Source: Bacteroidota bacterium
GTDB taxonomy: Bacteria; Bacteroidota; Ignavibacteria; SZUA-365
Length of the DNA: 64,000 bases
Assembly: GCA_049663345.1 (NCBI GenBank)
Contig: JBATDG010000087.1
Span: 33,695-97,694 of the forward strand
Direction: 5' to 3'
This document shows, piece by piece, positions 5,828 to 63,859 of this stretch (position 1 is its first letter; every line of letters starts with the position of its first letter). Below the pieces are notes generated by a model that searched no databases, had not been told where the DNA came from, and saw only the letters and a list, made by a program, of their open reading frames with translations. Made by a program: the position numbers and the translations under genes.

Positions 5828-5882
5828 TCGGTCTGCGATGTAGTTTTCTGATCACAGGTACACGCTGCAAAAGGATAGGACT

Positions 5883-6905: not shown

Positions 6906-6914
6906 GTACTGCAA

Positions 6915-35089: not shown

Positions 35090-36891
35090 ATGCAGAAATA
35101 TAGACTGTTTGTGAAAATCGGCCTGCTGGCGGCAATCCTTTTCTATATGGGACTCGGATCTGACGCCTTCGCTGTCACCCGGACCTGGGTAGGTGTCGGA
35201 CTTGGCAATTGGAACACTGCTCTCAACTGGAGGCCTAGCAGCGTCTCGGGTATTACCGGAAACACCGGTGATGCCGTGATTATTAACACCGTCTCGACGA
35301 TTACCATGAATGCTTCTTCAAACATCACGATCGCATCATTGCCCATTTCTGCGTCGAGTGTTGGACTCATTTCGGATAAAAAGATAACCACAGGGTCATT
35401 GACGGTTTCAGGTTCACTTGTTCTCAGCTATGTGAGTGCTGGAGGTGCGGCGAACAATATTTTTGATATCACCGGTGCAATGAGCCTTACTGCTCCGGTA
35501 TTATCTCTCGCTCGGGTTCCTGGGTGAGTACGGATGTCAAGATAAATATCGGCAGGAGAGGTACAGGCACAATAACCATGGCGGCGATTGCGAATAATTA
35601 CATCGCCTACCATGTCAACACTAGTATTGCTCGCAAACCTGTCCTGCTTTCCGATGTGAGATTTGAAGGAGACATTAATCTGCCTTCAGGAATTTCTCTT
35701 GGCACTGATGACCTGTATCTAGGGATCAACGCAGACGTGCTTACTCCGAATGCTGAAATCGGTGACCCAGGGAACTGCATCGAAGTTTCCGGCGGGAATA
35801 CAACTCCCTCCGGTGTTGTACGCAAACAGTATACTGCCGTAAATGACGCGTTCACCTTTAATGTGAGTCCCGGTACCGGCCGGTTGTCGCCCATCACGAT
35901 CAAGGTCATCAGCCCGACGCCATCCTCCTCATTTACAAGTGCTGTTCCCTGGCCGCATATCTTTGTCCGCGTCGTTCTCAATAATGGTGGAAACGGCGGA
36001 CACCCCGCGAATCAGCAGTCGCAAAAAGTCGGGGTTCACTGGCCGGTTAAAGGCTACGGAATCAACACTCCGGTATATTTCTCCGGTGTAATGACTTCCC
36101 ATAACAACTACAGGAACGGATCAGCTAACGATCTGTATTCAGCCCGCTACGCTCCAAGCTACGAAGATAACCTTTTTAATAGCGGTTGGGACCTCACCGG
36201 AACACAGCAAGTCACGACTACGAGCGGTGACCTTCGAAGCGTCCCGTTTAACGGCTTCCCCGGCTTTGGTGATTTCACCATCGGTTTTGGAGATCCCTTT
36301 GGCGGCGACCCTGTACCCGTCGAGCTCACTTCCTTCAGCGCACGCTATATCGATGGTTCGGTTCGCTTGAACTGGAATACCGCGACCGAGCTTAATAACT
36401 TCGGCTTCGCCATCGAGCGTTCGCAGGATTCGAAGAACTGGGAAGAAGTCGGCTTCGTGCAGGGCTACGGAACTTCCAGCAGCCCGAAGAGCTATTCGCA
36501 TACCGATGTGCTTACGGACGACCTTGCACGCACTCCGCAGCTCGCTTACCGTCTGCGTCAGATGGATCGCGACGGCACAATTGATTACTCGAACATCGTT
36601 TTTGTCAAAACGGGCGAACTGCCCGCCGGCGTCGAACTTTACGCTGCCTATCCGAATCCCTTCAACCCCGCAACTACGATCAGCTTTACTGTCAAGGAGT
36701 CTGCGAACGTAAACCTGAAGGTGTACAACACCTTCGGTCAGGTAGTCGCGACCCTGCTCAGCAACAGCTCAATGGATGCCGGCCTGCACACGATGTCGTT
36801 CAACGGAAATGACCTTCCGAGCGGCGTGTACATGGCAGTGCTTGAGGCGAGCGGTGAACTGCAGCAGCAGAAGCTTGTGCTCAACAAGTGA
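35090..36891 (+). pseudogene. Paralogue of cargo gene 32476..34263. It is split by a frameshift near 35520 into ORFs 35090..35527 (signal peptide plus N-terminus) and 35524..36891 (beta-helix, pre-CTD module, T9SS CTD)
   Basis: The two ORFs jointly align along the full length of the 604-aa paralogue (145+455 aa). The frame changes from phase 2 to phase 1. This could be a genuine pseudogene, a sequencing error or programmed slippage. Confidence 0.55.
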
Positions 36892-40016: not shown

Positions 40017-40174
40017 CCCGGCAGCCTGTCCCGCCTGAGCAAATCAAGAACAGGGCTGATCGATCTGAACCAGATGCTCCGGCAGGTTGTTCTTCCTATA
40101 TTGCATTGTTTGCATGCATTCCTACCTGAAGCGTGCATCGAATTTTTCCGTTCACGAGTTTTTTAGGAGTATTC

Positions 40175-41281
40175 ATGGCAGTCGTCGCCAACTTTAATCA
40201 ACAGGATGTTCTCAATGCCCTGCGCGTTGTGCAGGCTCCCTATATGAGTATCGATGTGGCAGCAGCGGATATGGTCCGCGATATCGTCATTACCGATGCG
40301 GATGTGCGTTTCACCCTTGATATGAAAATTCCTCCCGCCTTCGTCCAGTCGAATCTTGAGGTTCAGCTGCGAAAGGCACTGCAGGACCACCTTCCAGGTC
40401 TGGGAGAAATAACGATCGATCTAACCGTCAGCATCCCTTCGGCGGGTGAAGCGATGAAAAAGAGCGTCGTACCAGGCGTGCGGAACACCATCGCGATATC
40501 GAGCGGAAAGGGCGGGGTAGGAAAGTCTACCGTGGCAGTCAATCTGGCTGTTGCGCTTGCTCAGTCCGGCGCCCGCGTAGGATTGATCGATGCCGATATT
40601 TATGGCCCCAGTATTCCACTGATGATGAACGTGCAAACTCAGCCGCGCGCCTATTCCGAAGGCGGAAAGACACGCATGCTGCCGGTGGAAAGCTATGGCG
40701 TGCAGCTGATGTCGATCGGATTTCTCGTGCGACCTGAGGACGCCCTCATTTGGCGCGGCCCGATGGCCAGCGGTGCACTCAAGCAATTTCTCTCCGATGT
40801 TGACTGGGACGAACTAGACTACCTGCTGTTCGACATGCCGCCGGGAACCGGAGATATTCAGCTTACACTTTCTCAGTCCCTTCCACTCAGCGGAGCAGTC
40901 ATTGTGACGACACCTCAGGACATTGCGCTGGCCGATGCACGAAAGGGCGTAGCGATGTTCGAGAAGGTGTCGGTACCCATACTCGGCCTGATTGAAAACA
41001 TGTCGTACTACATTTGTTCGCATTGCGGAGAACGCGATGAGATTTTTGATTATGGCGGCGGAAGACGTACGGCGGAAGAATTAGGCGCTCCGTTTCTGGG
41101 CGAAATTCCAATCACGACGCGTGTGCGCGTCGGTGGCGACAAGGGTGTGCCCATCGTGGAGATGGAACCGGAGAGCCCTGTCTCACAGAGTTTCCGTGAA
41201 GCGGCGATGCATCTTGCCGGAAGGATCTCTGAAAGCAATATGCGTCAACCGTCCGCACCTGACATCGATATTTCACTCTGA
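40175..41281 (+). CDS. mrp: Mrp/NBP35-family iron-sulfur cluster carrier ATPase (ApbC)
   Basis: N-terminal DUF59-like domain, P-loop SGKGGVGKST and a CxxC motif (CSHCGE). Confidence 0.85.
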   Translation: MAVVANFNQQDVLNALRVVQAPYMSIDVAAADMVRDIVITDADVRFTLDMKIPPAFVQSNLEVQLRKALQDHLPGLGEITIDLTVSIPSAGEAMKKSVVPGVRNTIAISSGKGGVGKSTVAVNLAVALAQSGARVGLIDADIYGPSIPLMMNVQTQPRAYSEGGKTRMLPVESYGVQLMSIGFLVRPEDALIWRGPMASGALKQFLSDVDWDELDYLLFDMPPGTGDIQLTLSQSLPLSGAVIVTTPQDIALADARKGVAMFEKVSVPILGLIENMSYYICSHCGERDEIFDYGGGRRTAEELGAPFLGEIPITTRVRVGGDKGVPIVEMEPESPVSQSFREAAMHLAGRISESNMRQPSAPDIDISL

Positions 41282-43416: not shown

Positions 43417-45504
43417 ATGGCTGAGACGAAACATGTTCCGTTCGTCCCTGCGGACTCGGATATGAAGGAGTTCACGCTTCGCGCGTTGCTCATCGGTCTC
43501 GTTCTCGCTGTCGTGCTTGGTGCGGCGAATGCATACCTTGGCCTCAAGGCCGGTATGACTATCGCTGCGACCTATCCGGCCGCGGTTATCGGCATGGCCT
43601 TGCTCAAGGCCTTGAAGGGAACGATTCTGGAAGAGAACATGGCGCGAACCGTCGGCTCCATCGGCGAATCCGTCGCAGCAGGCGCGATTTTTACGCTGCC
43701 CGCATTCTTCGTCGCCGGCATCTGGCCGGAGTTCTTTACGACGTCGAATTACATCACCTCAACATTGATCCTGATTTCCGGCGGTGTGCTGGGAATCATG
43801 TTCGTCGCACTTCTGCGGCGAGTGATGGTTGAGGATCCGGAACTCCCGTATCCGGAATCCGTTGCAGCAGCGGAAATTCATAAGGCCGGTCGCGGCGGCG
43901 GCGGCGGATCAAAGTACCTTTTTGGTGCGATGCTCGGCGGCGCCCTCGTCAAAGCACTTGGAGAATTCAATGTTTTCCTTCCGCTGTGGGAACGCTTTAT
44001 TACGTTCTCAAAGACGACGATCACCGGCTTGGAAAAAATTCCTCTGGCTTCGGGCGGCGAAGGTGTCGCAGGAACCGGCGGTATGGTGCTGACCTCTTTC
44101 AAGATCAGTCCTGCCTATGTCGGCGTCGGCTACATTATCGGCCCGAAACTCGCGTCGCTGAACTTCTCCGGCGGTATTATCGCCTGGGGACTTCTCACGC
44201 CCATCATTCTTTATTTCATCGCTCCGTATTTGAACATCGACGGGATGGTGGCTGCCATCATGGCAGCGGATCCTGGCACCACGCTGACCGGTGCGACGGA
44301 GAAGGCATGGATTGACTCCGCGTATGCAGTCTGGAAATTTATCGTACGGCCGATTGCAATCGGTGGTATGCTCGTCGGCGCATCGTTCACGCTGTTCCGT
44401 ATGCGAAACAGTCTTACGGCGGGTATCGCGCGTTCGATCAGCGATGTGAAGAAAGCCGCCTCAGGCAACGCAGCCGATATTGATCGCACGGAGAAGGATA
44501 TCCCCTTCACCTGGACGCTGACCGGTATCTTCGGTGTTGCCGTAGCGACCTTCCTGATCACATTCTACCTTTTCAACACGACGTTCCTGGTCGCCTTTGT
44601 TGCCTCGACGGTAATGATTATCCTGGCGTTTTTCTTCGCTGCGGTATCCGGCTACCTCGTTGGAATCATGGGCTCGAGCAACAACCCGATCAGCGGACTG
44701 ACACTGACCGCCCTGGTCGTAACGGCCCTTATCATGGTGGTGCTCGGTGTTGAAGAAACACAGGGAGTCGCAGCGGTTCTCGGCGTTGCAGCAATTGTAT
44801 GCGTTGCTGCGGCTGTCGCAGGCGAAATGCTGCAGGATCTGAAGGCCGGACATATCCTCGGCGGTACGCCATGGAAAATGGAAATCGGCGACATCATTGG
44901 CGTCGTCCTTGCCGGCATCGTCATGTTTATGGTGCTGGTCTTCCTGAATGACGGTGATATCGCCGCCGGTAAAGTTGCAGGCTATGTCGGCGGTTTCGGC
45001 AGCCGCGAGCTTCCGGCACCGCAGGCGAGTCTCATGGCCATCCTCTCGCGCGGCATCGTCGAACAGCAGATGGCCTGGCCTCTGATTATCGTTGGTATGC
45101 TCATGGGTGCATCGTTCATCTTTATGCAGGTCAAGAGCCCGATGCTCGTCAGCGTCGGTATGTACCTGCCGCTGGAGACAACCTTTGCCATCTTCATCGG
45201 TGGCCTGATGAAAGGCGCAGTTGATATGTACAAGGCAAAGCGCAAGGTTAATGCTGCGCAGGATGCAAGAATCGAGAACACCGGTGTTTTACTTGCCTCC
45301 GGTCTTATTGCCGGAGAGGCGCTTGTGGGGCTTGTATTCGCGGGCTTTGCCGCGTTTGAGATGTTCCCTGGCAAGGTGTTCGAGAATCCGTCCTTCATCG
45401 TCAGTCTTGCCGTTATGGCAGTTATCGGCTGGGTGCTCATCCGCCTTCCGATGAACAATGCCGGCAGTCCCGACGAACCCGCACCGCCCACCGCGGCGCA
45501 CTAA
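43417..45504 (+). CDS. OPT-family oligopeptide transporter
   Basis: 695 aa with about 16 TM helices and a GGGGGS loop. The architecture is typical of the OPT family. Confidence 0.65.
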   Translation: MAETKHVPFVPADSDMKEFTLRALLIGLVLAVVLGAANAYLGLKAGMTIAATYPAAVIGMALLKALKGTILEENMARTVGSIGESVAAGAIFTLPAFFVAGIWPEFFTTSNYITSTLILISGGVLGIMFVALLRRVMVEDPELPYPESVAAAEIHKAGRGGGGGSKYLFGAMLGGALVKALGEFNVFLPLWERFITFSKTTITGLEKIPLASGGEGVAGTGGMVLTSFKISPAYVGVGYIIGPKLASLNFSGGIIAWGLLTPIILYFIAPYLNIDGMVAAIMAADPGTTLTGATEKAWIDSAYAVWKFIVRPIAIGGMLVGASFTLFRMRNSLTAGIARSISDVKKAASGNAADIDRTEKDIPFTWTLTGIFGVAVATFLITFYLFNTTFLVAFVASTVMIILAFFFAAVSGYLVGIMGSSNNPISGLTLTALVVTALIMVVLGVEETQGVAAVLGVAAIVCVAAAVAGEMLQDLKAGHILGGTPWKMEIGDIIGVVLAGIVMFMVLVFLNDGDIAAGKVAGYVGGFGSRELPAPQASLMAILSRGIVEQQMAWPLIIVGMLMGASFIFMQVKSPMLVSVGMYLPLETTFAIFIGGLMKGAVDMYKAKRKVNAAQDARIENTGVLLASGLIAGEALVGLVFAGFAAFEMFPGKVFENPSFIVSLAVMAVIGWVLIRLPMNNAGSPDEPAPPTAAH

Positions 45505-47612: not shown

Positions 47613-49373
47613 TCAGGAACAGCGCCGGACGATCAGCATCGTGATGTCATCCGACTGATTCGCACCCACTGTAAATGCTACGATTTCATCGCGAATATAC
47701 TTGAGGAGAGCATCTGCCGAGAGATCTCTCTGATCGGTAAGGAGCTGCTGCAGACGTTCATCACTGAATTCCTCCATCTCCTCCGACATGGCCTCATTTA
47801 CACCGTCGGTGTAGCAGACAATCATATCATCCGGCGCCAGCTGCACAGTCTCGAGACTGTAGGGGGGCGTATCCTTCATAATGCCGAGTATCAGACCTCC
47901 GGCATCAAGTGCGCGCATACTGCCGTCGGCATGCAGCAAGTAGGGAGGGTTGTGTCCGGCGTTTACATACGAAAATGTGTTATCCTGTGTGTTCAGGATT
48001 CCCCAGAAAAAGGTGATGAACTTGTCGGCGGAAGTATTGCCATGAATGATGGTGTTGATTCGGGCCGTGGCATCGGGCATGGGAAGACGGAGGGGAGCGA
48101 TGGTCCGCAAGGCGGCCTGCACGTTTGCCATAAGCAATGAAGCCGGCACTCCCTTCCCTGCAACATCTCCAATGGCGAGCACAAACTCGTGGTCGGAAAG
48201 TGAAATCACGTCGTAGTAATCGCCGCCCACCTGCTGCGACGAATCGTTTATCGCAGCGATCTCGTAGCCATTCAGCGATGGAATTGATTTCGGAAGAAGA
48301 CCCTTTTGTATTGTTTTCGCGACGCTCAGTTCCTGTTCCATCCGCTGCTTATCGATAGTCTCAATTACCAGTCGCGCATTCTCGAGTGCGGAAATAGTAA
48401 TGTTGGCAAGCGCGTGGAGGTATTCGAGCTCCGTGCGATCGAAGTTTGCTCCGCCGACTCGCTGACCCAGGCAGAGCATGCCGCGCACACGATGCTGCGA
48501 CATCATAGGGATCAATGTCGTGATGCCCATATCGAAAAGCCACTGTTCGTGCGGGTGCTCCGGTTGGCGCTGCGCGGAAAAAAGCACGGTCTCGTGCAGA
48601 TTTTCAAGCGCTTGCTGATGTCCTGCATCTGCTTCGAATTCGGGAAGCTTCACCGCTACAGGCTGCAAATTGCTTCCGTCATGCGTGAACACGGCATAAC
48701 GGAGAACGCGCAGCTGTCCCATAAGCGCATAGCTCAGAATTCGAAGAATGTCATCGGGTGCGAACGTCGTATTCATTTCCCGGCTGATCTCAAATAGGGT
48801 GTTCATCTCCTGAATCTTGGTATCAAGCCGTCGATTTACCTGGCGGAGATTTTCAATGGCCAACGCGTTCTTCACTGCCGTGGCTGCTACGGCGGCAACC
48901 GATTCCAGAAATGTCAGATCCGCCGTCTCGAAGGGCTTGCCGGTGATCTTTCGTCCCAGACCGATTATGCCGACCATGTGATCCTTAAGCAGCATCGGAA
49001 CAATTATTTCCAGGCCGCATTCGAGGGAACACGCCCCAAATTGCTTCAGCGACGGATCCTCGGTTTCGTTGAGGGAGGCGACAGAAATGACATGATCCCA
49101 ACCAATGGGAATGGTGAAATCGGAATCAATATTCTCAAGGGAAAACCCCTTTACCGAGCGGACCCGATAAGTTTGATCGCCCCTTTCCAGAAGTACAACT
49201 CCCCGCGTAACCATCAACTTTCCCATCGAGGAAAGCAGAATATTTCCCAGAATGAAATCGAAGTCCGTAGAGGCATTCAGCACGTTGCTTAGCTCCAACA
49301 GCGCGGCGCTGTCGGAAATGATGTCATACGCGGAATGAGAATAATCTGCCGGCATTTCTGAGAATAAGTTCAA
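47613..49373 (-). CDS. GAF-domain PP2C (SpoIIE/RsbU-type) serine phosphatase
   Basis: GDVAGKGVPASLLMA and YTDGVNEA PP2C motifs, with GAF-like domains N-terminal. Confidence 0.8.
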   Translation of the reverse strand: MNLFSEMPADYSHSAYDIISDSAALLELSNVLNASTDFDFILGNILLSSMGKLMVTRGVVLLERGDQTYRVRSVKGFSLENIDSDFTIPIGWDHVISVASLNETEDPSLKQFGACSLECGLEIIVPMLLKDHMVGIIGLGRKITGKPFETADLTFLESVAAVAATAVKNALAIENLRQVNRRLDTKIQEMNTLFEISREMNTTFAPDDILRILSYALMGQLRVLRYAVFTHDGSNLQPVAVKLPEFEADAGHQQALENLHETVLFSAQRQPEHPHEQWLFDMGITTLIPMMSQHRVRGMLCLGQRVGGANFDRTELEYLHALANITISALENARLVIETIDKQRMEQELSVAKTIQKGLLPKSIPSLNGYEIAAINDSSQQVGGDYYDVISLSDHEFVLAIGDVAGKGVPASLLMANVQAALRTIAPLRLPMPDATARINTIIHGNTSADKFITFFWGILNTQDNTFSYVNAGHNPPYLLHADGSMRALDAGGLILGIMKDTPPYSLETVQLAPDDMIVCYTDGVNEAMSEEMEEFSDERLQQLLTDQRDLSADALLKYIRDEIVAFTVGANQSDDITMLIVRRCS

Positions 49374-49443
49374 ATTGATTGACGTGAATCGTAAAATATA
49401 CGCATTCGTCAGGTGGGGAGAAAGGTTGTGTTTTATTGCACAC

Positions 49444-49660
49444 GGAGGAGGTGGAAAGGTTAAAAGGTTAAAAAGTTAAAAGGTTAAAAAGTTAAAAGGT
49501 TAAAAGGTTAAAAGGTCAAAGGGTGAAGAGGGAAATAAGGGGAATGAGGGAAATAAGGGAAATGAGGGAAATAAGGGGAATGAGGGGAAGAGGGGGAAGA
49601 TGGGGAAGAGGAGGAAGAGGAGGGAGAGGAGAAGAGGGGAAGGGGAGGTAAAAGGATAGT
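49444..49660. repeat. A ~215-bp homopurine tract with essentially no cytosine (pyrimidine-rich on the coding strand) inside the partner-switching operon. It is built from nested microsatellites
   Basis: One C in about 215 nt on the + strand. Three sub-arrays: GGTTAAAA(A) x ~8, GGGAAATAAGGGGAATGAG x 3 and GGAAGAGG-like x ~8. Flanked by the RsbW-like gene end (49660) and the PP2C gene start (49373). Confidence 0.9.
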
Positions 49661-50112
49661 CAGGCCGGAAGGTATTTGATCATGCGAATGGTGTTGCGGT
49701 CGCTGACGGAGGGGCCGTATTCGACTTCGTCCATGAGTTTTTTCATCAACACGATGCCGAGGCCGCCGTGGCGGAGTTTCTTGAAGTACTCAGTCATGTC
49801 GGGGGCAGTGTATTTGCTGCTATCAAAGGAGACTCCGCTGTCCAGAATCTCGACAATGAATTTCCTGGTTTTCTCGCTTCCCTGCTGAACACTAAGGCGG
49901 ATTTCGATGATGCCGTCGGGATTATATCGGTAGGCGTGCTTGATAATGTTGGTGCAGGCTTCGTCGATTGCGAGTTCGATTTTCCCAACATCACCTTCGC
50001 CGAACCCAAATTGCCGCGCTGCGTCTGAAACGAAGGTCCTCATGTCAGCCAGAAGTTCGGTTTTACTCTGGATCTGCAGGGTCTGGATGGTATGTTTATT
50101 CTGACTTGTCAA
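49660..50112 (-). CDS. Anti-sigma regulatory factor (RsbW/SpoIIAB-like serine kinase, HATPase_c)
   Basis: ELAIDEACTNIIKHAY and GGLGIVLMKKLMDEV motifs. Confidence 0.8.
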   Translation of the reverse strand: MTSQNKHTIQTLQIQSKTELLADMRTFVSDAARQFGFGEGDVGKIELAIDEACTNIIKHAYRYNPDGIIEIRLSVQQGSEKTRKFIVEILDSGVSFDSSKYTAPDMTEYFKKLRHGGLGIVLMKKLMDEVEYGPSVSDRNTIRMIKYLPA

Positions 50113-50152
50113 GGGTGATTGCAGTATCGGTACTGAAATACCTACGGCTTGT

Positions 50153-50518
50153 TTACGAAGGATTTTCGGATTTGTTCAGGAATTTGTTCACTGCTTCCGC
50201 TTCATCCTTGAAAATCTCGTACAGCATCGGGAAACCGAGCAAATCAAAGACGTTGTACACCCTGGTGGACATGTTGCTTAATTTGATGTCCCCCTCATTA
50301 TTACGGACATCCTCAATGAATTGCATCAGTACTCCAAGTCCTGCACTGCTGATGTAGGAGAGGTCGCTGAAGTTGACAACAATATTATACCTGGCCTCGC
50401 TCAGATGCTTCTGAAAGGCTCTTTCCAGTTCAGGCGCTGTATGGGCATCTAAATAGCCCTTCAACTCAAGAATGGAAACGGTATCCTGTTGTCGGATACC
50501 TACCGAAAATTCACTCAT
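50153..50518 (-). CDS. STAS-domain anti-sigma-factor antagonist (RsbV/SpoIIAA-like)
   Basis: The phosphorylatable-serine motif DLSYISSAGLGVL. 121 aa. Confidence 0.8.
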   Translation of the reverse strand: MSEFSVGIRQQDTVSILELKGYLDAHTAPELERAFQKHLSEARYNIVVNFSDLSYISSAGLGVLMQFIEDVRNNEGDIKLSNMSTRVYNVFDLLGFPMLYEIFKDEAEAVNKFLNKSENPS

Positions 50519-50577
50519 ACCTGACTCCTCAGTTCCGGATTACTTCGCAGTTCAAATTAATCGATTCTTGGTGACAA

Positions 50578-52701
50578 TCAAACTACTCCATTCCAGCGCA
50601 GTACCAGAACGGTGATGTCATCTTCCGCTTCTGCACGTTCACTGTAGATTTTTACGTTGTGCAGAATGGCATTCAGAATATTCTCCGACGGTTCCGCTAC
50701 AGCACTGGCCACTGTTTCACCAAGGCGCGAGTATTGGAATTCTTCGTCCTGCGGGTTCCTCGCTTCGGTAACGCCATCGGTGTACATCACAATTATGTCG
50801 TCCGCTTCAAGCACCAGCGACTCCTCACGCAGTGAATTCGCAAATCGCTCGGTTCCGTCCAGCCCAAGCGCCATGCCTTCCGGCTGAAGGAAGTTGCTCA
50901 CGCCCCGGCGCACATGCAGCAGCGGACAATGCCCGGCGCGTGAAAAAGATAAGGTACCTGTCTCAATATTCAGCACGGCATAGAGCAGGCTGATGAAGGA
51001 TTTTCGCTCCATGCTGTGGCATAGCGGCGTGTTCATGCGGATCAGGATGTCGCGGGTAGAAGCGCCATTCCCGCTCAGCGATTGGAAAATTCCCTTCACC
51101 TGTGCCATGTACAACGCGGCTGACACGCCTTTGCCGGATACGTCGCCGACTACGAATCCGATATGAGCGGCATCGAGCGGCAGCACGTCATAATAGTCAC
51201 CGCCCACCTCGTAAGCAGGAATGGATCGCGCGGCGATTTCAAAAAATGGAGAGGCGGGGAGTACCTGCGGCAGCAGGCTGCGCTGCATCTGCTGGGCAAC
51301 AAGCAGTTCCTGCTCCATGCGTTCTTTAACGATGGACTCCCTGATGAGCGTGCTGTTTTCGATTGCGACTGACACCATATCAGCGAACGCCGCGAGGACA
51401 TTGACAACATCCTTATCGAAGGCGTATGATTCACGCTTCGTCACAGACAGCAATCCGATAATTTCACCATGACTACTGAGTGGAACCATCACCAGCGTGC
51501 CGATTTCTCCGATGCTGCGCGTCGCATTATCAAGTCGACGGTCTGAAGTGAAATCCTGAATCAGAACCGGCCCGGCAGAGTGGAATGCCAGCTGCTGCAG
51601 TGCCTGACCGTCCATGGTCCGCATATTCTCGATACGGCTAATGCTGATATTCTTCACCGAATTCTGCACAATTGCGATATCTTCGGGATTGCGGTCTCCG
51701 CGCTTCGTTTTTCCGTTATCGGGAATCAGCTCCAGCCAGGCGGCATGCCCTTCGCTTACTTCCAGGGCGAGATGCGTCGTTGTTGCGATGAGTTCATCGA
51801 AATCAAATACCTGGGTGATCAGCCGGCTCATATTCTGCAGCGTCGAGATCTCCATTTTTTTTCGGTCGAATTCCTTCGCCGTCGGCAGATGCAGGAGAGT
51901 ACTGGCGAAGCCGATGCCCATGTAGGCAGTGCCGAAATGGAAGGCGAGTGTCATGAAGGCGTATAGCATCGGGTGATATGCCCGCAGTGCATTCTGGAGA
52001 ACCTCCCCTCCGCTCGCATGGATGGAGAGGATGAAGAAAAACGCAAAACCGAAAAGTGAGAGCAGTAGATTCACCATTTTCTCTCGCCGGGTGAGAACCA
52101 GGATCCATGAGAAATGGAATGCGTTGACGAGGATTCCGACGAAAGTAAGTCCGTATGCAATGGCGGTGAAGACTTCAAGCGATTTTAACCCAAAACCGTT
52201 CGGACCCGTGAGGTATTCGAGCAGAATGAAGCAGCCACCCGTCCCCACGAAAAAGATGTAGTTGCGGCGGGTGTTTTTTCTCCGCTTAATGAAAACAAGG
52301 CGGGAGAGGGAAGTGAAGACCACGATGGCACTGATCCCGCCCAGCGCTGCGATGAGGATAGTCGTTACGAGCGTAGAGAAGGATGCCGCAGCGATGAGCC
52401 CGCCCTTGTCCACATATCTGGTAGTGACCGAGAGTTGAATGATTCCGATGAGAAGCAGGTAGATGGTCGAAAAAATGACCGTGCGCCCGATAAGCTGTAT
52501 CGGCGGCTGATCGTTGTCCATCGTGCTGCGGAAATAGTAAAGTCCGCCGCCTCCGAATGCGATGAGGACAAGGAGGGTATGAAACAAATCGCCCTCAAGT
52601 GCTCCGGATGTCGTCAATGCACGTTGAATGAACACGTACACGAAGTCCAGCACGAGTGCAGCGACAGCGGCTATGAGAAGTATTCGTTTGCGAAGATTCA
52701 T
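50578..52701 (-). CDS. Membrane-anchored sensor with a GAF domain and a PP2C (SpoIIE-type) phosphatase domain
   Basis: About 8 N-terminal TM helices. PP2C motifs VGDVSGKGVSAALYMA and YTDGVTEA. The start was set at MNLRKRILLIAAV (M35). Confidence 0.75.
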   Translation of the reverse strand: MNLRKRILLIAAVAALVLDFVYVFIQRALTTSGALEGDLFHTLLVLIAFGGGGLYYFRSTMDNDQPPIQLIGRTVIFSTIYLLLIGIIQLSVTTRYVDKGGLIAAASFSTLVTTILIAALGGISAIVVFTSLSRLVFIKRRKNTRRNYIFFVGTGGCFILLEYLTGPNGFGLKSLEVFTAIAYGLTFVGILVNAFHFSWILVLTRREKMVNLLLSLFGFAFFFILSIHASGGEVLQNALRAYHPMLYAFMTLAFHFGTAYMGIGFASTLLHLPTAKEFDRKKMEISTLQNMSRLITQVFDFDELIATTTHLALEVSEGHAAWLELIPDNGKTKRGDRNPEDIAIVQNSVKNISISRIENMRTMDGQALQQLAFHSAGPVLIQDFTSDRRLDNATRSIGEIGTLVMVPLSSHGEIIGLLSVTKRESYAFDKDVVNVLAAFADMVSVAIENSTLIRESIVKERMEQELLVAQQMQRSLLPQVLPASPFFEIAARSIPAYEVGGDYYDVLPLDAAHIGFVVGDVSGKGVSAALYMAQVKGIFQSLSGNGASTRDILIRMNTPLCHSMERKSFISLLYAVLNIETGTLSFSRAGHCPLLHVRRGVSNFLQPEGMALGLDGTERFANSLREESLVLEADDIIVMYTDGVTEARNPQDEEFQYSRLGETVASAVAEPSENILNAILHNVKIYSERAEAEDDITVLVLRWNGVV

Positions 52702-52845
52702 AGTTAATGGATTACCGGGAACCTGGCACAAGCCGGCAACAGGCACATTATCCGATATACGGGATGAATAGGCGCGGGTTGCACCGATAATATAGACAAT
52801 CACCGGCTGTTTACGAAGGAGGGAGTTGCCTGCGCAACCGGATGT

Positions 52846-53922
52846 TTGCTATTTTACCTGATTAGAAAAAACGGGCTTCCAGTGACAAGCGCTCTTCTCG
52901 AAGTCGAAAATCTCAAGAAATGGTTCCCGGTCCGCACCGGGCTGCTGCGGGGCACGCGCCATCTTGTTCGTGCCGTCGACGGAGTCAGTTTCAAAATCAA
53001 CAAGGGCGAGGTGCTCGGTCTTGTTGGCGAGTCCGGATGCGGCAAAAGTACGCTCGGACGCGTACTGCTTCAGCTCCTCCCCCCGACTGATGGCCGGGTC
53101 TATTTTCAGCAGCAGGATATCACGCGCATCAGCAAACAGGAAATGCGGATACTGCGAAAGAAAATGCAGATCGTGTTTCAGGATCCGTATTCATCGCTGA
53201 ACCCACGCATGACGGTAGGTTCCGCGCTTCATGAAGTACTGCATGTGCATAAACTGCTGCCTCCCGCGGAGGAGGCAGAGAGGATCAGCAGCTTGCTGAA
53301 CATGGTGGGGCTCAATGATTTCCACGCCCGACGTTATCCGCATGAATTCAGCAGCGGGCAGAGGCAGCGCATCGGCATTGCAAGAGCATTGGCGGTGGAG
53401 CCGTTGTTCTTGGTCTGCGATGAGCCGGTATCTGCACTCGATGTCTCCATTCAGGCGCAGATTCTGAATCTTCTCGCGGATATTCGCGAAGCGCTGGACC
53501 TGACCTATCTATTCATTTCGCATGACCTCTCGGTTGTACGCCATATTTCCGATCGGATCGCGGTCATGTATCTGGGACGATTGGTAGAGCTCGGTCCGGT
53601 TGAGGATGTGGTCGCTTCGCCTATGCATCCGTACTCAAAAGCGCTGATGGCTTCTGCTCCGGTTGCCGACCCGGATTTTGTGCGCAACAGACCGCCTTTG
53701 AACTCCGATGTCCCCAGCCCGGTGAATATTCCCGATGGCTGCGCTTTCCACACGAGATGCTCTGAGGCATTCGCAGATTGCCGGCATGTGATTCCGCGCA
53801 TGGCTTCTGACGCCAACGGCCATCAGGTAAGTTGCCTGAAATATGACGCGTCATGGCCGCCCGAGACTTCACGGCCGATTTCTCACAGATCCTTCCCATA
53901 TACAGAGAGTGGAGATGAGTGA
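52846..53922 (+). CDS. ABC transporter ATP-binding protein, oligopeptide/dipeptide (OppF/DppF) type
   Basis: Walker A GESGCGKST, signature LSGGQRQRIGIARAL and a C-terminal extension typical of Opp/Dpp ATPases. The start is uncertain. Confidence 0.8.
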   Translation: MLFYLIRKNGLPVTSALLEVENLKKWFPVRTGLLRGTRHLVRAVDGVSFKINKGEVLGLVGESGCGKSTLGRVLLQLLPPTDGRVYFQQQDITRISKQEMRILRKKMQIVFQDPYSSLNPRMTVGSALHEVLHVHKLLPPAEEAERISSLLNMVGLNDFHARRYPHEFSSGQRQRIGIARALAVEPLFLVCDEPVSALDVSIQAQILNLLADIREALDLTYLFISHDLSVVRHISDRIAVMYLGRLVELGPVEDVVASPMHPYSKALMASAPVADPDFVRNRPPLNSDVPSPVNIPDGCAFHTRCSEAFADCRHVIPRMASDANGHQVSCLKYDASWPPETSRPISHRSFPYTESGDE

Positions 53923-55162
53923 ATTGTTTGATACGATGACCGAGGCGATTCCTACCCTCCGGCCGGATCTGGAACTCCTTCCGATCAGGGAAGACGGCGA
54001 AGATCTGCTCCTGCTCCGGGATCCTTCCGGATATTCGGATGAGATGCTCGTGTTCAGGCCCGCAGCGATGGCGCTGCTGCAGCTGTTCGACGGCAAGAGG
54101 AGTGTGAACGCACTGCTGGACGAAATTCAGTCAGGCACCGGGGTTCGTATTGACGGCGAACAGATTCTTGGAATCGTTCAATCGCTCGACCGCTTCTATT
54201 TTCTGCACAACCAGCGCAGCAGGGACAAACAGGAGGAGATGGATGCGGTCTGGATTGCACAGGATTATCGTCCCGCGGCGCACGCGGGAAATTCCTACCC
54301 GGATGATCCAGAGGAACTGAAGGATTTTCTGCAGGAGCTCTTTGATGCGGACGGAACCGCCATCGAAAGCGGTGAGCTGCTCGGCATCCTGACGCCGCAC
54401 ATCGATTTGCAGATCGGACCGCAGGTGTACGTTCCGGCATTTCGCCAGCTTTTGGACACCGATGTCGATACGGTGGTGATTCTCGGGACGAGCCATTATT
54501 CGTACGAGGATCTTTTCATCCTCACTGAAAAGGATTTCGCGACCCCGCTCGGTACGCTCCAGACGGACAAGGAGTTTGTGCGAATGCTGCGTGAGGAAAG
54601 CGGGGACCTCTTCACCCATCGGGATGTTGCCCACAAGCAGGAGCATTCCATCGAGTTCCCTGTCGTTTTTCTTCAGCATCTTTATGGAAACGAGCGTGTG
54701 CGTATTGTCCCCATTCTGTGCACATCGTTCGAGGAATTTCTCGTTGAGGGTTCCCGTGCGCTGGCGGATGAAAAATACGCGGCGTTCCTTCGAGCATTCA
54801 AAGCAACAGTCGATAAGTTGGGACGCAAAGTGCGCTTTGTGCTGAGCGTCGACTGGTCGCATGTCGGCAGGAAATTCGGTGACGATTTTGATGCCGCGGA
54901 TGTTCTTGAGACCGTTCGCGAATCCGATCACGCCCAATTCGCGGCACTCGAGGCCTGTGACTATGAGCGATTCTACGACTTGCTGCGTGATTCCAGGAAT
55001 GCATCCAAAATCGATGGCTTCGCCTGCATCACCACATTCTTTGACCTCACGCATCCGCAGCGCGGCGTGCTTCTCGATTATCAGCAATGGCATGAAGAGG
55101 AGCGGGCTTCCGCTGTGACCTTCGCCGGTATGGCTTTCTTTGGAGGCGAGGCGAACCCTTGA
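53915..55162 (+). CDS. Fusion protein: an N-terminal PqqD-like (RRE) domain joined to a Memo/AmmeMemoRadiSam-protein-B-like domain
   Basis: The N-terminal ~110 aa (FRPAAMALLQLFDGKRSVNALLDEIQ...ILGIVQSLDRFYFL) match the PqqD pattern. Memo hallmark: PAAHAGNSYP followed by ILGTSH. GAGAGTGGAG ribosome-binding site before ATG 53915. Confidence 0.6.
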   Translation: MSELFDTMTEAIPTLRPDLELLPIREDGEDLLLLRDPSGYSDEMLVFRPAAMALLQLFDGKRSVNALLDEIQSGTGVRIDGEQILGIVQSLDRFYFLHNQRSRDKQEEMDAVWIAQDYRPAAHAGNSYPDDPEELKDFLQELFDADGTAIESGELLGILTPHIDLQIGPQVYVPAFRQLLDTDVDTVVILGTSHYSYEDLFILTEKDFATPLGTLQTDKEFVRMLREESGDLFTHRDVAHKQEHSIEFPVVFLQHLYGNERVRIVPILCTSFEEFLVEGSRALADEKYAAFLRAFKATVDKLGRKVRFVLSVDWSHVGRKFGDDFDAADVLETVRESDHAQFAALEACDYERFYDLLRDSRNASKIDGFACITTFFDLTHPQRGVLLDYQQWHEEERASAVTFAGMAFFGGEANP

Positions 55163-55965
55163 GCATGCAAATGAATGAATTCATTGACACGCATTGTCAT
55201 TTGTATTGGGACGACTTCCGCCAGGATCTCCCGCAGGTCCTCGCAGCGGCACGGGCCGTCGGAGTAACGCGGATGATAATTCCAGCGACAGATTTTTCTT
55301 CGTTCCACCAGGCCTGCAGCATTGCTGATGCATTCGAGGATATCTTCATCGCTGTGGGCATTCATCCGCATGATGCAGGGAAGGCGCCGCAGGACTTTGC
55401 CGATGAATTGCGTCGGCTTGCCCGGCATCCGAAGGTTGTCGCGATTGGGGAAATCGGACTCGACTATTATTATGATTTCTGTACTCCCGCCGTGCAGCAT
55501 CGTATACTGCATTCGCAGCTGGAAGCCGCCCGTGAACTCGGTCTCCCGGTGATTCTTCATAATCGGGAGTCGGACGACGATCTCGTCGCCATAGTGAAAG
55601 AGCATCAGGATGGCAGCCTTCGCGGTCAGTTCCACTGCTTCAGCTCGGATACGCGCTACGCCCGGCGTGTGCTGGACGCTGGATTCCATATTTCTTTCAC
55701 GGGCAATGTCAGCTTCAAGAAAAGCACGCTCGATCCGGTGCTCTCGTATGTGCCTGATGACCGATTGCTGATTGAAACGGATTCCCCTTTCATGACTCCA
55801 GTGCCGTATCGCGGAAAGCGGAACGAACCCGCTTTTATCCCGCTTATAGCACAGCGCTTCGCGGCGACGCGGCATCAGTCAGTTTCGCATATCTCCCGTA
55901 TTACGACGCGCAATGCGGAGGAGCTTTTTCATCTCGAAAGGAAACACAGTAATGAACGCAGTTGA
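55159..55965 (+). CDS. tatD: TatD-family metal-dependent hydrolase
   Basis: Motifs DTHCHL..., GEIGLD and HNRES. Confidence 0.8.
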   Translation: MSMQMNEFIDTHCHLYWDDFRQDLPQVLAAARAVGVTRMIIPATDFSSFHQACSIADAFEDIFIAVGIHPHDAGKAPQDFADELRRLARHPKVVAIGEIGLDYYYDFCTPAVQHRILHSQLEAARELGLPVILHNRESDDDLVAIVKEHQDGSLRGQFHCFSSDTRYARRVLDAGFHISFTGNVSFKKSTLDPVLSYVPDDRLLIETDSPFMTPVPYRGKRNEPAFIPLIAQRFAATRHQSVSHISRITTRNAEELFHLERKHSNERS

Positions 55966-56755
55966 CCTCCCAAATTCGACGGAAGCACCGGAGCTGATTT
56001 CGTCGCTCGAGATGCATCAAGGCAGCCGCACGCTTCGTACGGAACTGCTGAAGAAAAAATATAAAAAGCGCTTTGTAGTAAAAGGCGCCACGGTCTCGGT
56101 TCGGCAGGGTGAAATCGTCGGGCTGCTCGGACCCAACGGCGCCGGTAAGACCACGACGTTTTACATGATCACCGGGATGATCCGTCCTACATCAGGCCGC
56201 GTGTACATTGATGACCGCGATATTACCCGGATGCCCATGTACAAACGCTCACGTCTGGGTATCGGTTATCTGCCTCAGGAGGCATCGGTATTCCGCCAAC
56301 TGACGGTTGAAGAGAATCTGCTCGCCACGCTCGAAGTCGTCGGCATGAACAGGAAGGATCGGAAAGCGAAAGCGGAAGAACTGCTGAATGATTTCAATAT
56401 TGCACACATCCGCGGAAGCAAAGGATACATGCTTTCGGGCGGCGAGCGTCGGCGGACGGAAATTGCGCGGGCAATGACGACGAACCCCAGCTTCATCCTT
56501 CTTGACGAGCCGTTTGCCGGCGTTGATCCCATCGCTGTGGAGGACATCATGCGCATCGTAATAAAGCTGAAGGAGCGCAATATCGGCGTCCTCATCACCG
56601 ATCATAACGTGCATGAAACACTTTCCATCGTGGACCGGGCGTATCTGCTGTTCGATGGCAGCATATTAATGGAAGGGGACAAGGAAAAGCTTGCCAACGA
56701 CGAGGAGGCGCGCAAAATGTACCTGGGTGAGAGCTTCCGCCTCGATCGATACTGA
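55952..56755 (+). CDS. lptB: LPS export ABC transporter ATP-binding protein LptB
   Basis: Walker A GPNGAGKTT, signature LSGGERRRTEIARAM, and about 240 aa. The start is 55952 or 56012. Confidence 0.7.
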   Translation: MNAVDLPNSTEAPELISSLEMHQGSRTLRTELLKKKYKKRFVVKGATVSVRQGEIVGLLGPNGAGKTTTFYMITGMIRPTSGRVYIDDRDITRMPMYKRSRLGIGYLPQEASVFRQLTVEENLLATLEVVGMNRKDRKAKAEELLNDFNIAHIRGSKGYMLSGGERRRTEIARAMTTNPSFILLDEPFAGVDPIAVEDIMRIVIKLKERNIGVLITDHNVHETLSIVDRAYLLFDGSILMEGDKEKLANDEEARKMYLGESFRLDRY

Positions 56756-56863: not shown

Positions 56864-57250
56864 ATGATGCTTGCCTATACAAAAACCACTGAGGGTCTTA
56901 CCGTCACCGTCCAGAGCTACTTTCTGGAAGAGCGGTCTGACGTGATGAAAAGCAGCTTCTTTTTCGTGTATTTCATCAGCATTCAAAACAACGGCACAGG
57001 CCCCTTGAAATTGCTCCGACGTCATTGGTTCATCCATGACGCATCGGCGCAGGATTATGAGGTAGAGGGAGAAGGTGTGGTCGGTGAGCAGCCCATGGTA
57101 AAACCGGGAATGACATACCACTACAACAGCTTTTGCGTGCTCAAATCCTTCGAAGGGTCGATGACCGGCAGCTACACGATGCAGCGGGAAGACGGCAGTT
57201 CCTTCGAGGCGGAAATCCCACGCTTTTATCTCAAGGCCCGTCTGAACTAG
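56864..57250 (+). CDS. apaG: ApaG-domain protein
   Basis: Conserved ApaG/DUF525 motifs (...GEQPMVKPGMTYHYNSFCVL...). Confidence 0.7.
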   Translation: MMLAYTKTTEGLTVTVQSYFLEERSDVMKSSFFFVYFISIQNNGTGPLKLLRRHWFIHDASAQDYEVEGEGVVGEQPMVKPGMTYHYNSFCVLKSFEGSMTGSYTMQREDGSSFEAEIPRFYLKARLN

Positions 57251-60898: not shown

Positions 60899-61912
60899 TC
60901 ACCGGTAAATGCGGAGACCTTCCGTGCAGTTGCGGCAAATGGGAATATCGCGGCGGCCGTTGAGTACGCGGTTGCGGAAGTCATGGTATTTCTCGGATTG
61001 CCACACTTCATCGAAGCTGTTTTCCTCGAGGGAGCCCAGAGGATACTCCGCATTTTTGTCAAAACAGCAGGGCACGACAACGCCGTCCCAGGTGATGACG
61101 CTGCGCTCCCAGAGTCGGACGCAGCGATTGTGCAGGCCGCTTTTGGGCTGCAGCTCTCCGTCGACGATTCGATAACGGCTGTAGCGCTCGTCGCGCGGGA
61201 GAAAGCGCTCGGCACTTTCGATAGAATACACCTGCATGGTTTTGAGCGCGACATCGGCATCGTGCGTCTGCGCCAGCGACCGCAGCTGTGGGAGCTGCGC
61301 TTCGTTCTGTCGGGTGACAAGAAGCTGCAGCGTGAGTTCCGTGGTGGCGCTGCGGCCAAGTACGCGTCGGACGGCATCCACATGCGCGAGCGCATCATGC
61401 ACTTTCTGCAAGGAACCGCCCACGCGATATTCTTCATAGACTTCCTGTGTGAGTCCGTCGATGGATACGATAAGGCGATCGAGTCCGGCGCGCAGAAGCG
61501 CATCAACAATTTCGCGGCGGAGAAAATGCGCGTTGGTGCTGATCGATACGAAAATCCGTTTCGAACGGGCATAGGCGATCATGTCCACCAACTGGTTGTT
61601 GATGAACGGCTCTCCCTGAAAGAAAAGTTGAAGGTAGAAAACGTCCCTGGAAATTTCGTCCACAATTTGGCGGAAGTGTTCGAGGTCCATCATGCCGAGG
61701 GGACGCACCATTTCGCCGTTGCCAGAGGGACACTCCGGACATTTCAAATTGCAGCGATTCGTGGGTTCGATAGTGAGGGTGTAGGGCCGTCCCCAGACAA
61801 CGCTCCGGCCGCGGCGGACCGAAAGTTGATAGGAAAGACCGACGAGCAGCAGGTTCCAAGCGCGGCGAAAACTGAAGCAGCGTGTGAGATTGCGGAGAGT
61901 CCGCAGTGTCAT
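60899..61912 (-). CDS. Radical SAM enzyme with a C-terminal SPASM/twitch-like auxiliary-cluster domain
   Basis: CNLKCPEC (Cx3Cx2C) in the N-terminal third. C-terminal GVVVPCCFD...CRNC cysteine cluster. Confidence 0.75.
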   Translation of the reverse strand: MTLRTLRNLTRCFSFRRAWNLLLVGLSYQLSVRRGRSVVWGRPYTLTIEPTNRCNLKCPECPSGNGEMVRPLGMMDLEHFRQIVDEISRDVFYLQLFFQGEPFINNQLVDMIAYARSKRIFVSISTNAHFLRREIVDALLRAGLDRLIVSIDGLTQEVYEEYRVGGSLQKVHDALAHVDAVRRVLGRSATTELTLQLLVTRQNEAQLPQLRSLAQTHDADVALKTMQVYSIESAERFLPRDERYSRYRIVDGELQPKSGLHNRCVRLWERSVITWDGVVVPCCFDKNAEYPLGSLEENSFDEVWQSEKYHDFRNRVLNGRRDIPICRNCTEGLRIYR

Positions 61913-62772
61913 CAGTTATCCTTTCTGCAGATCAGATACCAGGTCGGATTGAACCAGGTGTTGAAGAGTCCGGGCTCATCGCTCACGAGCCGGAGGACGA
62001 AATTTTTCAGGCCGCTGCTCTTCAGCAGCGATACCATTCGGAGGTGTCCTGTACTCCAAACCAGAGCTTCCGGACGAACAAAAAGCATTTGCGCCATCTG
62101 GCGGTTGATAAACGAGGCGTGGAGGCCGCTGTGCTTCAGCAGTCCGGTGAGTTCCGGGAAGCTGAACAGCTGCGCCAGATCTTCACGATCGGCATCGGCA
62201 GGACGCTTTTTCCTGAGCAGCGGACGCAATTTCTCACGCGTCTTCAGGCTGGCAAACGGCAGTCCGAAATGCGGATCGGAAACAATGTTGGAAAGGGCTT
62301 TCCGGTTCGGCGTGCTGAGGTAGAGCAGTCCTTCCGGCGTCAGTACTCGCGTGATTTCCTCAAGCACGCGCGATGGATCAACGACATGCTCGAGCACATC
62401 CTGCAGCACGATGGCATCGAAAGACGCATCCGGATACGGCAGTTCATCCAGAGCCGTCAGATCGGTTTCGATGTCCGGCAGACTTTCATTCAGTGCAGCG
62501 ATGCGGTCGGGATCGCAATCCACGGCTATGACATCCGCGCCGCGGGCGTAGAGCGCCGCGCTGGTCCCGCCGACGCCGCATCCGGCGTCCAGCACAACAG
62601 CGCCGTCGATGGTCATGAATTCGGAGAGGGCTCCGCATACCGCATCGCCCCGAAGCCGGGCATGATCGATGGCACGCTGCCAACGATCATAGTTCGGATG
62701 CGTGTTGTCGAGAGTGTATGTCGATTCGAATGTCGTTTCTATCACGGGATTACCAACGCGGCGGTTTGACAA
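61912..62772 (-). CDS. Class I SAM-dependent methyltransferase
   Basis: Motif I VLDAGCGVGG. Its stop overlaps the radical-SAM start by 1 nt. Confidence 0.75.
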   Translation of the reverse strand: MSNRRVGNPVIETTFESTYTLDNTHPNYDRWQRAIDHARLRGDAVCGALSEFMTIDGAVVLDAGCGVGGTSAALYARGADVIAVDCDPDRIAALNESLPDIETDLTALDELPYPDASFDAIVLQDVLEHVVDPSRVLEEITRVLTPEGLLYLSTPNRKALSNIVSDPHFGLPFASLKTREKLRPLLRKKRPADADREDLAQLFSFPELTGLLKHSGLHASFINRQMAQMLFVRPEALVWSTGHLRMVSLLKSSGLKNFVLRLVSDEPGLFNTWFNPTWYLICRKDN

Positions 62773-63859
62773 AAGACGTGAAACCGGTCAATGTTGAAAA
62801 GAAAATATGGAATCCTTCCCAAAACGCAAGACGAAATCTGCCGGCCTTGCTTTCATTCCAACGAAATGCATGCTGCAGAAAGCCCACATCATACCACAAT
62901 TTCCAAAACCACAAGATGAGTGGGATCACCCGTTCCGGCCCCTGGATGAAGATAGTGAGGGCGATTACTGCGAGGGGGGTGAGTCCTTCGCTGATGACGA
63001 ACAACGCGAGCAGAATAGCGGCACGGCCTCGATAGGCGGCGGATACGCGATAGTGGCGGAGCTTCTGCCTGAAAAGATCTCTCCAGGTTTCCAGTGCTGG
63101 TGAAACAACTATGGCGTCCTGCTGCACACAGACTCCAACGCTTGCGCCATGCCGCAGCATCTGCTGCAGCAGTAAATCATCATCGCCGCCGAGGTGAGCG
63201 TAGATCGAAGGGAGGCCTCCGCATTTTTCGTACATCGTGCGCGAAAATGCCCAGCTGCGGCCGCTCGCCATATACGGAAAACCGGAAGCAGCAGCGGCGA
63301 CGGCAAGCGTGGCTGTGCGCCGTGATTCGAATGCCGCATACGCCGAGGCGCCGCCTTTTCCGGCGGAGAGCGGTGCGAGTCCAATCACAGCATCAATGCC
63401 TTCCGCAAATGCGGATACCATGCCGCGGATCCACGATGAACGGGGAATGCAATCTGCATCGGTGAATAGCAGGAGTTCATGCGACGCGGCCATGATCCCG
63501 GCATGGAGCGCATGCTTCTTGGGTGAAACTCCATCGGGTACCGCATCGATACGGAGAATGCTCAAGGGCAGAGACTCGCTATATCGGAGTGTAGAGTCCG
63601 CTGTTCCGTCATTGGAGCGATCATCCACGATGATGATTTCGAGCAGCTCGCGCGGATAGTCCTGCGCCTCGAGTGCATCGAGCAGTTTCGGCAGCGTCCC
63701 GCATTCATTGTGCGCGGCGACGATGACCGAGACCGGCCTGAGCTCAATGCGTACGGGCGGCTTTCTCAATGCCCGCATCCATCCCCGATACGTGAAGACG
63801 AAGAAGGCTGAACTGAGCACGGCGCATAATACGGCGATTATCTGGAGGACGATGATCAT
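62750..63859 (-). CDS. Family-2 glycosyltransferase (GT2) with C-terminal TM helices
   Basis: An N-terminal TM helix, the motif IIVDDRSNDGT, and DxD-like DAD. It overlaps the methyltransferase start by 23 nt. Confidence 0.75.
   Translation of the reverse strand: MIIVLQIIAVLCAVLSSAFFVFTYRGWMRALRKPPVRIELRPVSVIVAAHNECGTLPKLLDALEAQDYPRELLEIIIVDDRSNDGTADSTLRYSESLPLSILRIDAVPDGVSPKKHALHAGIMAASHELLLFTDADCIPRSSWIRGMVSAFAEGIDAVIGLAPLSAGKGGASAYAAFESRRTATLAVAAAASGFPYMASGRSWAFSRTMYEKCGGLPSIYAHLGGDDDLLLQQMLRHGASVGVCVQQDAIVVSPALETWRDLFRQKLRHYRVSAAYRGRAAILLALFVISEGLTPLAVIALTIFIQGPERVIPLILWFWKLWYDVGFLQHAFRWNESKAGRFRLAFWEGFHIFFSTLTGFTSFVKPPRW

Follow-up and report, generated by a model that had tools for sequence, protein, structure and literature searches.

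A putative metalloenzyme with an RRE-like domain fused to a Memo domain, encoded in a housekeeping operon of a Bacteroidota bacterium

The window considered here is a stretch of 64,000 nucleotides from a Bacteroidota bacterium of the Ignavibacteria lineage SZUA-365 (contig JBATDG010000087.1). On its forward strand it carries an intact open reading frame of 415 codons plus stop (positions 53915–55162), encoding an RRE/PqqD-like domain followed by a Memo domain; the gene, called RRE-Memo below, is defined by the ORF and its translation, an identical public protein and a full-length AF2 model. The start codon, ATG at 53915, is in agreement with the N-termini of 39 aligned homologues and with the public gene call, and the 24 extra residues of an alternative, longer ORF that begins at 53843 are not conserved. 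The public protein P0001, described as 'MAG: Bacteroidota bacterium', is 100% identical to the translation and occurs in two independent assemblies, an NCBI MAG and a Logan assembly. The AF2 model of the full-length protein (pLDDT 93.6, pTM 0.88) is confident in predicting a single unit, in which a leader-binding-type fold is shown rigidly associated with the Memo domain, the same pTM of 0.88 applying to this predicted association. The two domains are joined by a linker helix, assigned by DSSP to residues 100–115 in both AF2 models (54212–54259, forward strand).

RRE-Memo is the second gene of a co-oriented run that further comprises an OppF-like ATPase, a TatD-family hydrolase, LptB and ApaG. 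The first of these is an orphan OppF/DppF-type ABC ATPase (52882–53922, forward strand; the longest ORF starts at 52846 and the public start is 52882), which has ABC_tran and oligo_HPY domains and scores 402 bits against PRK11308. It retains the Walker A and B motifs, the signature and the H-loop in intact form and has four invariant cysteines in its C-terminal part. The C-terminal tail of the ATPase was considered as a substrate encoded in the same operon; beyond 'SWP' it is not conserved and it is therefore not a candidate ligand. An earlier note on this DNA, made from the sequence alone, had pointed out that the RRE-Memo start overlaps the stop of this ATPase and that the latter lacks a permease partner nearby. 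Both observations hold. The stop at 53922 overlaps the start of RRE-Memo by 8 nt (ATGAGTGA), and permease or binding-protein genes (BPD_transp_1, SBP_bac_5) were not found within about 10 kb, neither here nor in the related loci L001, L003 and L006; when these loci, the window and the distant locus L007 are taken together, Opp permease and binding-protein genes occur only in L007. An OPT peptide transporter is encoded 8 kb upstream of RRE-Memo in the window.

The TatD-family hydrolase directly downstream (55171–55965, forward strand; PF01026, 1.5e-78; TIGR00010, 260 bits; public call) is the conserved downstream neighbour of RRE-Memo in its clade. It is followed by the LPS export ABC ATPase LptB (56012–56755, forward strand; TIGR04406, 366 bits against a cutoff of 240; public call) and by ApaG (DUF525; 56864–57250, forward strand; NF003967, 9.6e-42), which closes the run and is kept in L001, L003 and L006. 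The same gene order is found in these three loci, which are of Bacteroidota type and from Ignavibacteria, and the adjacency of OppF and RRE-Memo is limited to this FCB-type clade and one distant locus. On the opposite strand, a partner-switching module (two GAF-SpoIIE proteins, STAS and an RsbW-like kinase) is located upstream and ClpB and MlaE are located downstream. Promoter and terminator scans within the operon gave results no better than those with shuffled sequences. RRE-Memo belongs, in this organism, to an ordinary housekeeping operon.

The N-terminal domain (residues ~10–99; 53942–54211, forward strand) was delimited with the AF2 model and its structural matches. An AlphaFold run on this domain, from alignment A2, gave a confident model (pLDDT 93.8, pTM 0.82) with three strands (20–26, 29–35, 45–47) followed by three helices (49–56, 64–75, 81–93), which is the order of secondary structure elements expected of an RRE. 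The predicted domain resembles solved leader-binding RREs, with PqqD, TfuB1, TbiB1 and PbtF at the top of the structural matches and aligned over the greatest lengths; RRE-like folds were also found in NovN/GdmN, PKMT and MINA53 by structural comparison, and a Foldseek search of the domain model against the PDB returned nothing significant. The first 125 amino acids alone gave no Pfam match even at E≤10, the PqqD model included. Weak NCBIfam matches were obtained with the RRE part of ApyI (7.5e-4), PqqD (0.0098) and ScmD (0.044), those of ApyI and PqqD being far under their cutoffs. When a profile of 30 N-domains (A2) was searched against PDB sequences, PaaA (0.017) and three PqqD entries were among the top five, and 6 of the 30 relatives individually matched Pfam PqqD (PF05402), the best at 9.4e-5. 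A feature that is newly described here, from the alignment of 194 full-length relatives, is that this predicted RRE contains an invariant aspartate (D36, 194/194) and a near-invariant arginine (R16, 193/194), which are conserved as strongly as the metal ligands of the Memo domain.

The Memo domain itself (residues ~119–408; 54269–55138, forward strand) was delimited with Pfam and a MEMO1 alignment. It matches PF01875 with 156 bits (cutoff 27; E=1.5e-45) over residues 121–406 and profile positions 2–268 of 269, and has the MEMO1-type fold, which is that of class III extradiol dioxygenases. The motifs named in the earlier note are present (AAHAGNSYP at 121–129, ILGTSH at 189–194 and DWSH at 313–316), and its description of the protein as a PqqD-like domain fused to Memo is upheld, with an RRE/PqqD fold in the AlphaFold run and a genuine Memo domain behind it. 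Identity with human MEMO1 is 22%; a phmmer search of PDB sequences with the whole protein gave no match, so that a family profile was needed to align MEMO1. In this alignment H162 (54398–54400), H194 (54494–54496) and D367 (55013–55015), all forward strand, coincide with H49, H81 and C244 of MEMO1, its iron or copper ligands, and with the LigB equivalents H12, H61 and E242 (PMC11081632). D313 and H316 lie near the predicted metal site. In the 194 full-length relatives H162, H194, D313, H316 and E247 are invariant, and as judged from this conservation the predicted metal site of RRE-Memo is complete in terms of MEMO1-equivalent residues.

Position 367 varies in a way that is newly described here: it is Cys in 114 of these relatives and Asp in 78, and in 71 of the latter Asp367 is accompanied by Cys371. 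The more distant RRE-Memo proteins retain the MEMO1-type Cys, and the clade of the window thus shows a predicted switch of the third ligand from Cys244 of MEMO1 to Asp367. Because Asp replaces Cys, this clade would have the 2-His-1-carboxylate set of true extradiol dioxygenases. Dioxygenase activity of MEMO1 was not detectable, and Memo proteins in general have no known enzymatic activity (PMC11081632). In the MEMO1 crystal glutathione is located beside the iron (PMC11081632), and the active site was reported to bind a phosphopeptide (Qiu 2008, as cited in PMC7694686).

The concern of the earlier note that the fusion might be an assembly chimera can be dispelled. A scan of one genome per species, in line with its suggestion to search for the same fusion elsewhere, confirmed fusion loci in at least 593 species genomes from many phyla: Bacteroidota, Ignavibacteria/Kapaibacteria, Acidobacteriota, Aminicenantes, Thermodesulfobacteriota, Verrucomicrobiota, Planctomycetota, Nitrospinota, Methylomirabilota, Spirochaetota and others. 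Complete genomes with the gene also exist, for example OZ244991.1, OY970261.1 and CP070774.1. The best 120 of 770 homologues are about 400–440 amino acids long, are covered over their full length and are all fused, a few truncated entries excepted; the precomputed Pfam annotation of the same 120 gives Memo alone. More generally, Pfam and NCBI annotation do not show the RRE-Memo architecture. A profile of the N-domain found 2163 proteins at E≤0.001 among 1.84 billion cluster representatives. The best 150 of these are RRE-Memo proteins or short entries, and the matches that were checked carry Memo or are truncated fragments of Memo-bearing proteins. Short matches of 110–230 amino acids, considered as stand-alone N-domains, turned out to be truncated or frameshifted fragments running into the Memo motif, and a protein of 2076 amino acids with 16 partial matches (P0122) was rejected as a repeat-protein false positive. 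To judge from these searches, the N-domain virtually never occurs apart from Memo, and the fusion appears to be obligate and phylum-spanning.

In other phyla the gene is surrounded by different neighbours. In Thermodesulfobacteriota, Dadabacteria and one Ignavibacteriales MAG it stands between HyuB (oxoprolinase B) and an M19 dipeptidase, in Aminicenantes it is followed by an arginase family gene and an M64 peptidase, and in an Acidobacteriota locus it occurs with methylmalonyl-CoA mutase and enoyl-CoA hydratase. The distant member in L007 (36% identity) is encoded directly after a complete OppDF-A-BC operon. About 50 of the 82 loci have no common context. The recurrence of peptide-handling neighbours is suggestive, yet it is not independent across loci; as the neighbourhood varies by phylum and so many loci share no context, the peptide-handling theme could be lineage synteny.

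The proposal that went furthest in the earlier note was a pathway of the RiPP or AmmeMemoRadiSam type, in which RRE-Memo would act together with a radical-SAM/SPASM enzyme encoded 6 kb away on a ribosomally made precursor. RREs are indeed typical of RiPP pathways, the radical-SAM/SPASM gene is real (60899–61912, reverse strand) and it is present at equal distance in L001. It is situated, however, on the opposite strand, where it forms a separate operon together with genes for a methyltransferase and a glycosyltransferase of type GT2, and five genes (TatD, LptB, ApaG, ClpB and MlaE) lie between it and RRE-Memo; its product lacks an RRE and cannot be assigned to any NCBIfam family at the model cutoffs. 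An Ignavibacteria locus whose synteny is otherwise the same has RlmN as the radical SAM protein at that position. Over about 80 loci from many phyla, radical SAM accounts for 2 of the 108 neighbours at ±2, and at ±1 it does not figure among the top families. The AMMECR1 partner that the earlier note recommended to look for was not found among the 45 window ORFs scanned, nor among the top-25 families of the 148 ±1 and 108 ±2 neighbours in these loci. The AmmeMemoRadiSam system is defined by co-encoded AMMECR1 and a radical-SAM activase, and this combination was absent from the neighbourhoods scanned; the link to the triad is not supported. The protein does score 112.1 bits against TIGR04336 (AmmeMemoRadiSam protein B, a hypothetical-equivalog model), where the cutoff is 26, and public annotation names it AmmeMemoRadiSam system protein B; for the RRE-Memo subfamily this is probably an over-annotation. 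When the ORFs of 20–120 amino acids lying no more than 1.5 kb from the gene were compared all-against-all across 82 loci, no conserved small ORF emerged beside RRE-Memo outside shadow ORFs in the OppF, TatD, arginase and M19 genes. Where a RiPP cluster would have an adjacent precursor together with tailoring, protease and export genes, the neighbours here are housekeeping or catabolic. A RiPP gene cluster at RRE-Memo is thus not supported, and the joint pathway, largely refuted by synteny, must be regarded as very improbable.

Most likely, RRE-Memo is a stand-alone peptide- or protein-directed metalloenzyme. The best explanation that can be offered, and one for which we consider the balance about even, is that it is a member of the Memo_RRE class in which the RRE docks a peptide or protein segment for the metal centre of the Memo domain. 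A linear segment would be bound by strand addition at the third strand and third helix of the RRE, a nearby residue of the docked segment would be presented to the Fe (or Cu) centre, and this residue would undergo a redox or other metal-dependent modification. We infer docking because of the precedent of other RREs, the phosphopeptide binding reported for MEMO1 (in the work cited in PMC7694686) and the glutathione beside the MEMO1 iron. By this analogy it is plausible that the RRE supplies Memo with a peptide substrate, as the earlier note had supposed. Operon contexts with peptide handling (the OppF-like ATPase, the Opp operon of L007, M19 and M64) speak for the docking explanation. Against it speak the marginal sequence likeness of the N-domain to PqqD, the lack of a significant Foldseek match, the neighbourhoods that differ by phylum, the failure of the search in 82 loci to find a peptide partner or conserved small ORF, and the absence of a known enzymatic activity in Memo proteins. 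Because no precursor, RiPP tailoring genes or AMMECR1/radical-SAM partners were found in the loci scanned, a cellular peptide or protein, or peptides from catabolism or uptake, would be likelier substrates than a RiPP precursor. The narrower possibility that a housekeeping RRE-Memo directs its metal centre to a cellular protein or peptide that is itself conserved, which would amount to leader-guided modification outside natural-product clusters, is rather unlikely in our estimate. Judged by taxonomy, many of the host lineages are anaerobes. This speaks against a reaction that strictly needs O2, and as moreover no Memo protein has a demonstrated activity, oxygen-dependent ring cleavage should not be assumed.

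The main rival to peptide docking assigns the RRE-like domain a structural or regulatory role, as a winged helix serving in dimerisation, partner docking or allostery, and gives Memo a small-molecule substrate, such as a glutathione-like thiol peptide or a compound arising in the catabolism of peptides or amino acids. The failure to find a precursor gene in 82 loci fits with this, as does the presence of small-substrate hydrolases next to the gene in three lineages (M19 dipeptidase, oxoprolinase B subunit, arginase family), and the glutathione beside Fe in MEMO1 (PMC11081632) may be read in the same way. The invariance of D36 and near-invariance of R16, moreover, would point to residues with a fixed task in structure or catalysis and less to a leader-binding surface that co-evolves. 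On the other hand, the best structural matches of the domain are bona fide leader-binding RREs, the MEMO1 active site has been reported to bind a peptide (as cited in PMC7694686), and a small-molecule substrate is known for no Memo protein, so that a role of this kind is possible but on the doubtful side. It may also be envisaged that RRE-Memo is a partner of the OppF-like ATPase, either as a peptide sensor or regulator or as an accessory subunit of an oligopeptide ABC importer, in view of the overlapping or abutting arrangement of the two genes in every locus of the clade, the Opp operon directly preceding the L007 member and the OPT transporter upstream in the window. Such a partnership is hard to reconcile with the restriction of the adjacency to one clade and one distant locus, most phyla being without a nearby ABC gene, with the lack of conservation of the ATPase tail, or with the occurrence of the unrelated TatD, LptB and ApaG in the same operon, and we regard it as decidedly unlikely.

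The architecture is already on record. In an update of RRE-Finder, Memo-like proteins (PF01875) were listed among high-confidence fusions 'unprecedented in RiPPs' (Bregman et al., mSystems Nov 2025, PMC12710340), and the RRE-Finder model RREFam044 'Memo_RRE' was issued with that paper, so that the novelty is less than had been assumed. The class has the same combination of an N-terminal RRE and a Memo domain of family PF01875. Structure, not sequence, led to its detection, and by its architecture the window protein is presumably a member. No function, genomic context or active-site analysis was given for Memo_RRE in PMC12710340. The housekeeping context, the predicted replacement of the ligand Cys by Asp and the (near-)invariance of R16 and D36 are what is added here.

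Comparison with better-known proteins brings out the differences. Human MEMO1 (PDB 3BCZ, 7KQ8) has no RRE and uses Cys244 as its third ligand; the clade has Asp367 there, followed by a Cys at position 371. PqqD (5SXY) and the lasso RREs TfuB1 (6JX3) and TbiB1 (5V1U) exist as separate proteins, and next to their genes are those for a precursor peptide and for a radical SAM protein or a protease. The window domain, by contrast, is part of a Memo protein without a precursor gene nearby, is not recognised by the Pfam PqqD model and carries the family-specific (near-)invariant R16 and D36. As to AmmeMemoRadiSam (TIGR04335/04336/04337), the Memo domain passes the low cutoff of TIGR04336, but the defining partners are absent nearby in about 80 loci. 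The JmjC ribosomal oxygenases MINA53 (2XDV) and NO66 (4DIQ) also combine a winged helix with a catalytic domain, but there the winged helix is C-terminal and the catalytic part is a cupin instead of a LigB/Memo fold; the likeness is an analogy of design and not homology of the catalytic parts.

The remaining value of RRE-Memo is that of an entry point to Memo biochemistry rather than that of a new system, and its occurrence in a housekeeping operon illustrates that a RiPP cluster cannot be inferred from an RRE alone. Conserved from bacteria to humans, Memo proteins have been implicated in cancer-cell motility and iron homeostasis, with no reaction assigned (PMC11081632). An obligate peptide-recognition domain, if the predicted RRE acts as such, narrows the search for Memo substrates to peptides and protein segments, and RRE-Memo, a simple and soluble product of one gene, lends itself to binding screens. 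The predicted Asp/Cys switch provides a natural variant pair for comparing metal preference and reactivity. If leader-guided modification in a housekeeping setting proves to be true, the reaction of the Memo family, human MEMO1 included, would become tractable for the first time through these bacterial proteins.

In the Memo protein, the 415-aa fusion of an N-terminal RRE (RiPP recognition element)/PqqD-like domain to a Memo domain, the third metal-ligand position lies in a stretch (residues 367–371; window 55013–55027, + strand) that switches in a co-varying manner: the clade of the window carries 'IDGF(A/S)C', whereas distant members have 'ICG(L/F)PP'. Among 194 full-length relatives, the pair of residues at 367 and 371 is D/C in 71 and C/P in 73. 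In the RRE domain (window 53960–54022, + strand), R16 (193/194) and D36 (194/194) are as well conserved as the catalytic histidines, in all phyla, a level which is unusual among RREs. These two residues may form a salt bridge, or they may make contacts with the Memo domain or with the substrate.

The gene preceding RRE-Memo encodes an orphan OppF/DppF-type ATPase (52882–53922, + strand), which is conserved and has no permease or binding-protein gene nearby. Eight orthologues all share its four C-terminal cysteines (C299, C305, C312 and C330), a pattern suggestive of an Fe–S site. An OPT-family oligopeptide transporter (43417–45504, + strand), located 8 kb upstream of the ATPase, is a second peptide-uptake gene in this part of the window. 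The operon that comprises the ATPase and RRE-Memo is divergent from a partner-switching module (47613–52803, − strand), composed of two GAF-SpoIIE (PP2C) phosphatases, a STAS anti-anti-sigma protein and an RsbW-like kinase. The synteny of module and operon is found in related Bacteroidota-type and Ignavibacteria loci (L001, L003 and L008–L012).

Further downstream, an operon on the − strand (60899–63859) encodes a radical-SAM/SPASM protein, a class I methyltransferase and a GT2 glycosyltransferase, a trio that is kept in L001. The radical-SAM/SPASM protein (336 aa) contains no RRE, and all its scores against NCBIfam families are far under the cutoffs, with the tungsten-cofactor maturase family at the top (116 vs. 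380 bits). The trio looks more like small-molecule or glycolipid chemistry than like a RiPP pathway.

Elsewhere in the window, an Mrp/NUBPL-type Fe–S carrier ATPase (40133–41281, + strand) has a DUF59 (FeS_assembly_P) domain at its N-terminus. The RRE-Finder paper (PMC12710340) names DUF59 as its other novel RRE fusion partner; no RRE was seen on this Fe–S carrier ATPase. A very long ORF of 1657 aa (27048–32021, + strand) lies near genes whose products have type IX secretion sorting tails (18–890 and 35524–36891). An aromatic amino-acid ammonia-lyase (− strand), a MarR-like regulator, a KAS III-like protein, a sodium:solute symporter and an AMP-dependent ligase are grouped at 3380–9943, and the group may constitute a small aryl-acid pathway.

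A different setting of RRE-Memo occurs in six 21-kb loci (L021, L032, L038, L043, L051 and L068), where it is part of a tight operon (at about 8.4–12.2 kb), between a Hydantoinase_B/oxoprolinase subunit and an M19 dipeptidase, with no Hydantoinase_A gene seen beside it. The enzymes on either side of RRE-Memo in these loci are both members of gamma-glutamyl-cycle-type peptide breakdown.
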